From positions 2,496,001 to 2,560,000 of the forward strand of contig CAXXVS010000002.1 in NCBI GenBank assembly GCA_963674755.2: a stretch of DNA of 64,000 nucleotides, written 5' to 3'. Under the pieces are notes generated by a model. It did no database searches, was not told the DNA's origin, and worked only from the letters and a program-made list of their open reading frames with translations. The translations under genes were made by a program, and so were the position numbers. The DNA comes from Desulfobacterales bacterium. Lineage in GTDB: Bacteria; Desulfobacterota; Desulfobacteria; Desulfobacterales; UBA5852. Positions 29,764 through 32,167 of this stretch are shown here, piece after piece (within the stretch, counting starts at the first letter, position 1; each line of letters begins with the position of its first letter).

Positions 29764-30882
29764 TCAAGACGTGTGTTCCAGCAGAATCCGCAGCATCCGC
29801 CGCAGGGGTTCGGCCGCCCCCCACAGGAGCTGGTCCCCCACGGAAAAGGCGGTCAGATATTCCGGCCCGATCGTCAGCTTGCGCAACCGGCCCACCGGCA
29901 CCGTGAGCGTGCCGGTCACCTTGGCCGGCGTCAATTCCCGCAGGGTGATGTCCTTCTCGTTGGGGATCACCGCAACCCAATCGTTGTGTCCGGCGATCAA
30001 GGCCTCGATGTCATCCAGGGGCAGGTCGCGCCGCAACTTGATGGTGAAGGCCTGGCTGTGGCAGCGCATGGCGCCGATGCGAACGCATTGGCCGTCGATG
30101 GGTACGGGGTTGCCCTGGCGGCCCAGGATCTTGTTGGTTTCGGCATAGCCCTTCCACTCCTCCCGGGTCTGACCGTTTTCCATGGGGCGGTCGATCCAGG
30201 GGATCAGGCTGGCCGCCAACGGGGCGCCGAACTGGGCCACCGGGAAATCCCCGCTACGCAGGGTGTCGGTGACCCGCTGATCCAGGGCTTTGATGGCGGA
30301 AGCCGGATCGTTCAGCAGGGCCTCCGCTTCACTCCCGATGGTGTGCATCTGGGCCACCAGTTCGCGCATGTTGTTGGCCCCGGCGCCGGAAGCCGCCTGG
30401 TAGGTCATGGAGGTCAGCCATTCCACAAGGTCCTTCGCGAACAGGCCGCCTAAGGCCATGAGCATCAGGGATACGGTGCAGTTGCCGCCGATAAAATCTT
30501 TGACGCCCTCGGTCAGGGCCTTGTCGATGACCTGCCGGTTGACCGGATCGAGCACGATCACGCTGGCGGGATCCATCCGCAGGGTCGAAGCGGCATCGAT
30601 CCAGTAGCCCGGCCAGCCGTTTTGCCGCAGTGCCGGATGGGTCTTCTCGGTATAGCCACCGCCCTGGCAGGACACGATGATCTCCATCTGCGCCAGACGC
30701 GCCAGATCGAAGGCATCTTCCACCAAAGGCACGTCCCGGCCGATGTCAGGCCCCTTCTGCCCCGCCTGGGAAGTTGAAAAGAAATAGGGATCGTAACCGC
30801 TGAAATCGTCTTCCGCCTGCATACGATCCATGAGGACCGAGCCGACCATTCCCCGCCATCCGATAAAGCCGACACGTTTCAT
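29764..30882 (-). CDS. asd: Aspartate-semialdehyde dehydrogenase
   Basis: [39 protein letters not shown]. Confidence 0.97.
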
Positions 30883-30928
30883 CTTCTGCACTCCTTTTTC
30901 TGGGTAAATGAAAAACAGGGCGCCAAAT

Positions 30929-30970
30929 GAAAAAGCCTCTCTGAACCCCGGTGCCGGTTCAGAAAGGCTT
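30929..30970 (-). terminator. Attenuator terminator upstream of asd
   Basis: AAGCCTTTCTGAACC-GGCACCGG-GGTTCAGAGAGGCTT then TTTCATTT on minus strand. Confidence 0.88.
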
Positions 30971-30991
30971 ACATTGCTTTGGATTCAATTC

Positions 30992-31096
30992 CTAGCGCCG
31001 CTTCCCGAACCAACCCCTTCCCGGGCGGGTCATTATGGTGGCGCCCCGCTTGGTGCCGGTGTGTGTTTTGGTTTTGGTCAGGTGGAGCGTCGGCAT
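30992..31096 (-). CDS. Putative asd leader peptide (34 aa, Thr/Lys-rich)
   Basis: MPTLHLTKTKTHTGTKRGATIMTRPGRGWFGKRR*; AAAGG 5 nt upstream; 3' part contains the antiterminator strand. Confidence 0.75.
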   Translation of the reverse strand: MPTLHLTKTKTHTGTKRGATIMTRPGRGWFGKRR

Positions 31097-31269
31097 TGAA
31101 CCTTTGATCCTGTCAATACGCTTTCGCGCTTTTAAATTAGCGGTACTTTCCTGTATCTAGCCCGAAAAGTCAACCATCCAAATCGGGTTGTCCGGCGGAC
31201 CTTGTTCTCCCCAGGTGCGCGGCGCCATTTGCGGTCGTGATCGGGCATATGGCACACCAATTAGGATGA

Positions 31270-31674
31270 CTATGCTTTGGGCGCCACCAGCCCTCTGACA
31301 TCCGTAATTTTAAACCGGACGGCGGCTACGATGGCGTTGGCGGAGCGGTCGCCGGCCACTTCCCGGATGTTTTTCCGGAACGAATCCAGCAGTTCACCGT
31401 AGCGCTCAAAGGAATCCAGTTCCAGGTAAAGCCGGGCCCCCTTCCATTCCGTCGGGGATTCGCCGGGCTCGATCACGATGAAACTGGCCTTGGGATTTTC
31501 CTGCAGATTTTGGAAGGACCGGTTGTCGCCGATGGCCATGATCACGGTGTCCTCGTCGATCATGCGCGGCGAGCCGAAAACGGCGGCGTCGACATTGCCG
31601 TCTTTGTCGGCCGTGGCCAGCGCACCAATGCGGGTCTTCTTGTTGAACATCCTCATCACCTGTTTTCGATCCAT
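31270..31674 (-). CDS. Pyridoxamine 5'-phosphate oxidase-like FMN-binding protein
   Basis: LATADKDG, SFQNLQENPKA, KGARLYL. Confidence 0.85.
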   Translation of the reverse strand: MDRKQVMRMFNKKTRIGALATADKDGNVDAAVFGSPRMIDEDTVIMAIGDNRSFQNLQENPKASFIVIEPGESPTEWKGARLYLELDSFERYGELLDSFRKNIREVAGDRSANAIVAAVRFKITDVRGLVAPKA

Positions 31675-32167
31675 GTCGTCTCCTTATGGTTTTGGGCCGC
31701 GTATACACAGACACTATCGCCAATGTTTCCGATCCATCCGGAAGTCAATGAACCTTGTTAATCAGTGGCCGTCCCGAAATGGTAGATTTTAGTTCCTGTC
31801 AAGGCCCGAACGCGTTTTCCCGCTTTGCGGGACTTCCCATCCGATTGATTCCCAGCGGTGGGTGTCAACCGGCGGAATAGTTCACTGTTTCGAGGATTGA
31901 CAACAAGCGAGACGCGGCCAGGGGCCGAAAGATGCCATTTCGGGCTGGACACTGATAGGGTAATACCGAACCTCGCCGGCGCAACGGGTGTCACGGGCGG
32001 TTCCAACCGCAATCGGCTGAGGGGAGGACTGAACTGGGACTTTCACCATAGTGGGGCGCTTCCGCCGGGCGACCGGGCGGTGGCTTTCAGTTTTTCGGGT
32101 CATGCCGGAGACAACGCTACACGGTGGGATTTCTGGCGCCCCCCCTGAGATGGCATAGGAAGCCTGG

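Follow-up and report, generated by a model that had tools for sequence, protein, structure and literature searches.

Locus and leader features

The window (the whole 64,000-nucleotide stretch of Desulfobacterales DNA that was analysed) carries on its minus strand the gene asd, which scored 588 bits against TIGR01745 in a profile search (cut-off 403) and is the single match of its kind in a 6.7-Mb, 97%-complete genome. The gene starts at 30882, and a convergent amidase gene comes next after it (ORF map and profile search); upstream, a pyridoxamine 5'-phosphate oxidase-like (PNPOx-like) small protein (PF01243) is encoded at 31270-31674, also on the minus strand. The parts of the leader between the two genes, and asd itself, are as follows.

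31145..31173, minus strand: predicted sigma70-type promoter, with -35 TTGACT (31173-31168), a 17-nt spacer and -10-like GAAAGT (31150-31145)
31101..31111, minus strand: weak Shine-Dalgarno-like sequence of the leader, AGGA (31111-31108) and AAGG (31104-31101)
30992..31096, minus strand: leader ORF, 34 codons plus TAG (translated sequence)
31075..31089, minus strand: segment 1 (codons 3-8), predicted anti-antiterminator strand, pairing with 31012-30996 (consensus fold)
31067..31069, minus strand: conserved Lys10 codon, predicted unpaired (alignment and consensus fold)
31021..31059, minus strand: inner hairpin of the leader (codons 13-26; core GCGGG:CCCGC; consensus fold)
31049..31051, minus strand: conserved Lys16 codon, AA unpaired and G paired by prediction (alignment and consensus fold)
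31001..31014, minus strand: segment 2 (codons 28-32), 5' strand of the predicted antiterminator, pairing with 30966-30953
30953..30966, minus strand: segment 3, terminator 5' arm and start of the loop, antiterminator partner (pairing)
30930..30970, minus strand: intrinsic terminator, 15 bp, 8-nt loop, U-tract (terminator scan, -25.5 kcal/mol)
29764..30882, minus strand: asd, gamma-type aspartate-semialdehyde dehydrogenase, the putatively regulated gene (TIGR01745)

The ORF at 31096-30992, unlisted among the program-made ORFs, translates exactly as the first-pass annotation had given it, with eight Thr (codons 3, 7, 9, 11, 13, 15, 20 and 23), four Lys (codons 8, 10, 16 and 32), one Ile and two Met, the start Met counted. 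The peptide had no match in Pfam or NCBIfam, and an Rfam scan of positions 30500-31800 gave no match at E ≤ 5. The terminator with U-tract that the same annotation placed after the ORF was recovered as a hairpin at 30970-30933 with a tail of five T (30934-30930), the first two of which are paired at the stem base, followed by CATTT; the gap from terminator to asd is 48 nt.

Transcription probably starts near 31138, some 40 nt 5' of the leader AUG. The -10-like GAAAGT matches the consensus at only 3/6 positions, and a consensus promoter scan at the leader called no promoter. A second box, TTGACA at 31116-31111, was rejected as a downstream promoter, having no -10 at 17 nt and not being conserved. 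The Shine-Dalgarno-like site gave -4.3 kcal/mol against an anti-SD motif; across the 22 leaders described below, the site is strong in two (-7.8 and -8.9) and weaker than -1, that is nearly absent, in eight. In two contig-level RNA runs (11% and 5% of words, mostly other organisms), codons 1-19 were not covered.

Conservation of the leader among relatives

Three sets of loci were compared. For the first, 41 genomes were searched with the Asd protein, which yielded 22 gamma-type asd loci picked by protein alone; leader ORF, stop position and terminator occur together in 8 of these (this genome included), and 14 are without them. Each of the 8 leaders found in this way has its terminator 21-22 nt past the stop, and the distance from the end of the -10 to the leader stop is 151-154 nt in 7/8, the seven being the loci where the pattern matched. 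The second set was collected with the terminator pattern and comprised 12 metagenome matches and 6 genome-contig matches, the latter assigned to Desulfobacteraceae, Desulfobacterales or delta proteobacterium. Every one of these matches has the leader ORF, and asd was read downstream in 9/12 metagenome matches, with no downstream gene read for the other three. Duplicate removal left a close set of 17 distinct leaders, including 9 new metagenome copies, for which conservation of the terminator is circular, since they were found by its pattern, and conservation of the ORF is not.

An RNA model built from the 17 close leaders and run on 151 genomes of the order matched eight of them: this genome, a congener, three intact and one truncated asd leader in other families, one dapA leader, and one match (L056, E 0.002) that was left uncounted, its downstream gene not being clear. 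The model contributed one further leader-bearing genome. The third set consisted of the 30 asd loci nearest to this one among 401 genomes and added 21 loci, namely four intact leaders (two of them new), one truncated leader and 16 loci without a leader. In total, we obtained 22 distinct intact leaders, with a gamma-type asd next wherever the downstream gene was read. A quick tree of 46 Asd proteins placed all 17 leader-bearing rows inside one 22-row group (SH-aLRT 93) together with five leaderless rows, a pattern which fits, and does not prove, a single origin of the leader followed by losses.

A TTGAC/TTGAT box stands 61-85 nt before the leader start in 22/22 leaders; among the 17 closest, 15 have it at 75-78 nt. 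In leaderless relatives, such a box lies directly before asd. A transcription start downstream of 30929, which the first-pass annotation had named as an objection to its own reading, is at odds with a promoter-like site upstream of the leader at conserved spacing; another of its objections, that the leader ORF might lack conservation, is answered by the 22 intact leaders.

One locus (L087/L054, genome G077) carries, ~60-200 nt 5' of asd, a truncated leader that keeps the promoter-like site, antiterminator and terminator and lacks the 5' half of the ORF, with the start and most Thr/Lys codons; such a leader would be constitutive by prediction, or else is an assembly error. The asd leaders of family f36 (L081, L082 and L084) have 26-30 codons, with the stop shifted three codons upstream. 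Six loci (L004, L021, L007, L031, L032 and L034) have ~130-220 nt inserted between terminator and asd start; the insertions in L004 and L021 are a long palindromic repeat-like element, and similar elements lie on G000:C2 upstream of hom (L061) and of the homocysteine-biosynthesis (HcyBio) gene (L073). Four congeners of the window's genome (L008, L010, L011 and L012) have a separate asd clade at 73-76% identity and without a leader, so the genus holds two asd lineages. The asd match is in three pieces in different frames in L021 (G003) and L022 (G017), through frameshifts or assembly errors, and L093 has an asd with an in-frame TGA. At L086, a promoter-like site similar to that of the leaders is found right before asd. 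The gene 5' of the leader is, in most relatives, not the PNPOx-like gene found here.

Coding signal in the leader ORF

The 17 close leaders align over the 105-nt ORF without a gap; 15 have ATG at codon 1 and two have it at codon 3, and all 17 end in TAG. Indels among leader loci fall in the spacer and the loop, and none in the 17 ORFs. Internal stops occur in 0/17 in the leader frame, versus 17/17 and 8/17 in the other two frames. The Thr columns (codons 7, 9, 11, 13, 15, 19 and 23) showed 15 silent and 14 replacement changes, compared with 14 silent and 61 replacement changes in the non-Thr, non-Lys columns of codons 2-25, a comparison in which the Thr/Lys columns were chosen after inspection of the alignment, codon 3 was omitted and the related leaders are not independent. 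This difference suggests that it is the codons that count, rather than the peptide they encode.

A genome-wide scan for short ORFs before a hairpin and U-run was noisy, with hundreds of chance matches among the matches listed, and many of its ORFs had equal or better single-residue enrichment. We accordingly regard composition alone as weak evidence, and take conservation as decisive for the leader appearing to be more than chance. The same noisy scan contained a short Thr/Ser-rich ORF at G000:C1 112413 (minus strand), which precedes a U-run hairpin of very high predicted stability (-34.7 kcal/mol).

Amino acids probably read by the leader

We counted codons in a sensing zone that extends from codon 2 to the ninth codon before the stop, which gave 509 codons over the 22 leaders. 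The zone holds 164 Thr (32.2%), 53 Lys (10.4%), 33 Met (6.5%) and 18 Ile (3.5%), against a background in this genome's long ORFs of 4.9, 3.9, 2.5 and 5.8%, respectively. From these sequences Thr would be the main signal of the asd leader and Lys is likely the second.

For Lys, AAR codons outnumber AAY in frame by 53 to 4, with AAR at 14 and 3 in the other frames; the ten divergent leaders have 26 AAR versus 4 AAY, and the Lys count of 26 compares with 5.1 in shuffles of the non-Thr codons. These results argue that Lys is not a matter of A-richness. This genome's leader taken alone has Lys at 3/24 zone codons (p=0.063). The zone contains at least one Lys in 22/22 leaders, with a median of three, and two positions stand out in the close set. 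Codon 10 is Lys in 16/17 (AAG in 10, AAA in 6, with AGG in the remaining one), with two silent changes and one replacement change on the tree, and is absent from pairs of mean probability above 0.2 in the consensus fold. Codon 16 is Lys in 15/17, always AAG, and is also found in two other families. Neighbouring non-Thr columns underwent 4-6 residue changes versus 1-2 in the Lys columns. The fourth Lys of this genome's leader lies inside the antiterminator strand, so it could not promote read-through.

Part of the Lys signal could nevertheless be RNA pairing, since Thr-Lys codons (ACCAA) complement the antiterminator strand (UUGGU), and this leads to the reading in which a thrL-like device that senses Thr only was moved to asd, its Lys codons being kept for RNA reasons or too few to matter. 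We consider that reading unlikely, while noting what speaks for it: Thr exceeds Lys 3:1 in the zone, family f36 (three genomes) manages with a single zone Lys, the G of Lys16 is paired, and the one Lys10 replacement, to AGG, would keep pairing in an alternative register. That register involves codon 9 and has a mean probability of 0.21, with a compensatory-looking change in L037. A Thr-only device does not readily account for Lys10 and the AA of Lys16 being unpaired in the consensus folds, for the AAR excess over AAY, for a zone Lys in every leader or for the slower change of the Lys columns, nor for the existence within the same order of Lys-only leaders before dapA (described below).

The first-pass annotation had seen all four end products of the aspartate pathway in the leader, on the strength of a T-I-M-T block. 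That block is not conserved: Ile at codon 21 occurs in 1/17 leaders and is private to this genome, and zone Ile is below background and absent from 10/22 leaders. Of its proposal that Thr and Lys are sensed together with Ile and Met, the Thr part is supported, Lys is a likely second signal, the Ile part is not supported, and the Met part is doubtful. A leader reading all four would be very unlikely in our assessment, even with A-starting zone codons divided 268 to 16 between Thr/Lys/Met/Ile and Asn/Ser/Arg, Met above its background, column 8 alternating between K, I, T and M in 16/17, one to three Ile in the f36 leaders, and both the HcyBio family (PF01837) and threonine deaminase (ilvA) encoded in this genome. 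Citramalate synthase (cimA) is encoded as well, and with it Ile can be made by a pathway that bypasses Thr; this genome's leader probably does not read Ile. Among the zone Met, 10/33 are at codon 3 and are likely alternative starts. Met22, found in 14/17, exchanges with GTG, as fits pairing (its UG is paired in the predicted hairpin), and sits where stalls least favour antitermination; it may add a weak third input, and ATG/GTG there, which fits the pairing, may also be a second start. The PF01837 family, which we take to make homocysteine from the product of Asd, lends weak support to Met sensing. The f36 leaders, rich in Thr, Ile and Met, may represent a possible retuning towards these three amino acids.

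Two other candidates were rejected. Sensing of Arg or Trp was set aside, as these codons sit in helices and Arg17 and Arg24 change together in a compensatory manner. The t6A tRNA modification is common to all ANN codons; its sensing was rejected with Asn, AGY-Ser and AGR-Arg rare in the zone (4, 4 and 8 of 509).

Taken with these counts, our favoured assignment, which we hold to be fairly probable, is an attenuator that reads Thr and Lys, with or without a weak Met input.

Predicted RNA switch and mechanism

Consensus folding of the close leaders gave three mutually exclusive states: codons 3-8 paired with codons 29-34 around the inner hairpin, codons 28-32 paired with the terminator 5' arm, and the terminator. 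The first of these, an anti-antiterminator, was absent from the first-pass annotation. The second agrees with the annotated antiterminator of 14 consecutive pairs (31014-31001 with 30966-30953), which consist of six G-C, four A-U and four G-U, one G-U fewer than the five annotated. Only a core of 11-12 pairs is conserved; two of the three outermost pairs hold in just 2-3/17 sequences.

Covariation differed between the helices. The leader hairpin is 88% paired with eight double-change cells, a value reached by 1/500 shuffles; the core helix of the inner hairpin is 98.8% paired, and one compensatory change from G-C to C-G alters both Arg17 and Arg24, which indicates that these Arg codons are kept at the RNA level. 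The third base of codon 5 is C or U in 17/17, although the residue varies. The antiterminator showed no double change in the 17 close leaders and did not beat shuffles there; in 11 divergent leaders, its 11-bp core is 91% paired with three double-change pairs, and shuffles were as high in 2/500 (pairing) and 3/500 (covariation), both of which are measures that relatedness can inflate. The family of L052 uses a different, upstream antiterminator strand (-17 kcal/mol, p 0.033). The alignment that the first-pass annotation proposed thus bore out conserved Thr, Lys10 and Lys16 with modest covariation, and gave neither an Ile/Met block nor a 2:3 double change among the close leaders.

We modelled the ribosome as an unpaired mask on a transcript ended at the terminator loop. 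The mean antiterminator probability was 0.46 without a ribosome, 0.67-0.85 for stalls at codons 2-13 and 0.50-0.61 for stalls at codons 14-23; it is 0 from codon 26 on by construction of the mask. With the full terminator transcribed, equilibrium folding of this genome's leader gave a terminator probability of 1.00 wherever the ribosome was placed, which leaves only a kinetic switch. Folding of the alternative structures therefore favoured the annotated scheme in that the antiterminator rises with early stalls, and departed from it in that the terminator wins at equilibrium once complete. The three exclusive helices would fit trp/thr attenuator logic, with covariation that is modest.

The scheme that these predictions suggest is as follows. 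RNA polymerase would start ~40 nt before the leader AUG, with a ribosome following. With ample charged tRNA-Thr and tRNA-Lys, translation would proceed to codon 26 or further, the ribosome would mask codons 28-32, and transcription would end at the hairpin 48 nt upstream of asd. On a leader free of ribosomes, codons 3-8 would compete for the strand of codons 28-32, and termination would be favoured. A stall on the Thr/Lys run (codons 7-16) would cover segment 1, in which case codons 28-32 would capture the terminator 5' arm ahead of synthesis of the 3' arm, and transcription would continue into asd. The promoter-like site, leader ORF, Thr/Lys enrichment, terminator and three-helix complementarity are conserved across the compared sequences; that the leader is transcribed and translated, that ribosomes stall on it and that asd is thereby regulated is what we infer. 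We hold it very probable, as far as comparative sequence analysis reaches, that the asd leader would act as a classical ribosome-coupled transcription attenuator of the trp/thr type; the thrL-like logic claimed in the first-pass annotation agrees with the conserved ORF, the terminator and the predicted exclusive helices.

The same features could in principle belong to a structured cis-acting RNA, a ligand- or protein-controlled terminator switch in which the ORF is a by-product or is coupled to general translation speed. A long hairpin spans the ORF (-33.5 kcal/mol), the C-terminal codons are conserved at the RNA level and the Shine-Dalgarno sequence is weak in many copies; there is also a precedent, as B. 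subtilis lysC, for which a Lys-rich leader had earlier been suggested, reportedly proved to carry an L-box riboswitch instead. We nevertheless judge this highly improbable: the start ATG, the stop and an indel-free frame persist, silent changes cluster in the Thr columns, the ORF ends exactly over the antiterminator strand, and no Rfam family reached its gathering score in 14 related loci or matched in the stretch around the leader. That the hairpin merely terminates an upstream gene, with the asd promoter below it and the peptide a chance ORF or a free small protein, is hardly credible, for although the PNPOx-like gene (31674-31270) is on the same strand and a scan found no other minus-strand terminator in 30700-31700, the upstream genes vary among relatives whose promoter-like site, ORF and terminator remain linked, just 48 nt separate terminator and asd here, the box directly before asd belongs to leaderless relatives, and the peptide, without a Pfam/NCBIfam match, changes freely.

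Candidate leaders upstream of dapA, and searches at other pathway genes

A weak match of the RNA model, L055, lies before a dapA (TIGR00674, above cut-off) whose clade is present in 7/401 genomes of the class and absent from this genome. All seven dapA genes of the clade (L074 and L098-L103; for example L055:1472-1637) have an upstream ATG ORF of 25-36 codons and a strong terminator. The zone of these leaders contains 34 Lys and 2 Thr among 143 codons. Their predicted antiterminator beat shuffles (p<0.05) in 2/7, so we treat them as candidate lysine-only attenuators; being Lys-rich and Thr-poor, in comparison with the Thr/Lys leaders of asd, they suggest that codon content tracks the pathway branch. 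All seven are matched by the asd RNA model at E 1e-5 to 0.19, with the terminator probably contributing most of the signal.

The model gave no match in 11 leaderless asd loci or in 8 other pathway loci searched. In 400 nt upstream of both aspartokinases, two hom matches, cimA, ilvA and HcyBio, no comparable leader was found by eye (with the start misplaced for one hom match) or with the RNA model, and the region upstream of this genome's own dapA (L076, below the tblastn cut-off) gave no RNA-model match. The lysine riboswitch model RF00168 had no covariance-model match in this 97%-complete genome, in a search whose control matched in 4/14, and none in the 14 related loci. It is about an even call whether one uncatalogued Desulfobacterales attenuator design, retuned by codon content, senses Lys through the ribosome, as Thr plus Lys at asd and Lys only at dapA, in place of the lysine riboswitch.

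Comparison with known systems

Regulation by lysine is generally attributed to the L-box riboswitch or to regulatory proteins. The L-box (RF00168), like the asd leader, acts by premature termination in control of Lys-pathway genes; unlike the asd leader, it binds free lysine and has no leader ORF. Among the delta-proteobacteria then studied, Rodionov 2004 reported no L-box (PMC545781), and a Thr+Lys leader, if true, would fill a gap in this class. T-box leaders and the asd RNA motif RF01732 gave no match in 30500-31800 (E ≤ 5) or in the 14 related loci. The latter motif is from Lactobacillales (PMC2864571), and the same source cites 'attenuator-like sequences' at Streptococcus mutans asd (Cardineau and Curtiss 1987); these share with the present leader the name of the target gene and the proposal of an attenuator, and differ in that the leader here does not match the RF01732 model.

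Among the matches listed in our literature search, no asd or lysine leader-peptide attenuator was described for Desulfobacterales, though the surveys of Vitreschak 2004 and Lopatovskaya 2010 could mention one. The novelty that the first-pass annotation saw in a Lys leader would hold for this lineage, and is reduced by a Thr/Lys leader peptide proposed in Sinorhizobium meliloti: SEP5 (Hadjeras et al. 2023, PMC10117765), a small ORF, shown to be translated by Ribo-seq and Western blot, whose codons include six for Thr and three for Lys and which lies in the 5' UTR of what is described as an 'aspartate dehydrogenase-encoding gene'. The likeness, a Thr/Lys-rich small ORF in a 5' UTR, is one of description; the SEP5 cluster is near the 3' end, whereas that of the asd leader is mid-ORF, and the passages on SEP5 give no RNA switch or regulation test.

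The Corynebacterium ilvB uORF attenuator (Narunsky et al., PMC11109978), identified by comparative genomics, likewise combines enrichment in codons for several end products with a terminator and antiterminator; unlike the asd leader, it reads Ile/Leu/Val, precedes ilvB and belongs to another phylum, and lysine, asd and dapA are absent from the main text of that report. Further literature for comparison was PMC4833913, PMC1885841, PMC10043782 and PMC12612679.

Several features of classical attenuators are found at asd: a conserved short 5' leader ORF, end-product codons upstream of the antiterminator strand, an intrinsic terminator before the gene and, in predicted structures, exclusive 1:2, 2:3 and 3:4 helices placed for selection by the ribosome. 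The locus is nevertheless distinct from the Rfam Thr_leader (RF00506, gathering score 55 bits), with no match even at E ≤ 1; the best match in the genome, at 27.3 bits, lies elsewhere. Nor does it have the Thr and Ile control codons before thrA(BC) that mark thrL, Ile being at or below background and the gene being asd. On comparative sequence evidence, we conclude that the asd leader is real and very probably a leader-peptide attenuator, one that is uncatalogued and combines Thr with Lys codons. Since the Lys, Thr and Met routes part after the step that asd encodes, a Thr+Lys leader, if true, would be a two-input branch-point sensor, and the 22 natural variants, the one copy without its 5' half and the leaderless sister genes form a ready series for the question of Lys-codon attenuation.

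The E. coli thr leader thrL is a 21-aa leader under Thr control (PMC7041290), with Thr/Ile specificity (Lynn 1987, as cited in PMC7041290). It shares with the asd leader a short ORF rich in Thr, alternative helices and an intrinsic terminator ahead of a gene of the aspartate pathway; the asd leader differs in having 34 codons rather than 21, Lys rather than Ile as the second amino acid, and a monocistronic asd rather than thrABC, in Desulfobacterales. In 2013, the leader-peptide attenuators of Rfam were those for His, Leu, Thr and Trp, and Ile/Val and Phe types were also known (PMC3766115). The mechanism predicted for asd would thus be textbook and the Lys input its unusual, candidate part; if Lys is indeed read through the ribosome, lysine would join the amino acids read by classical attenuators.
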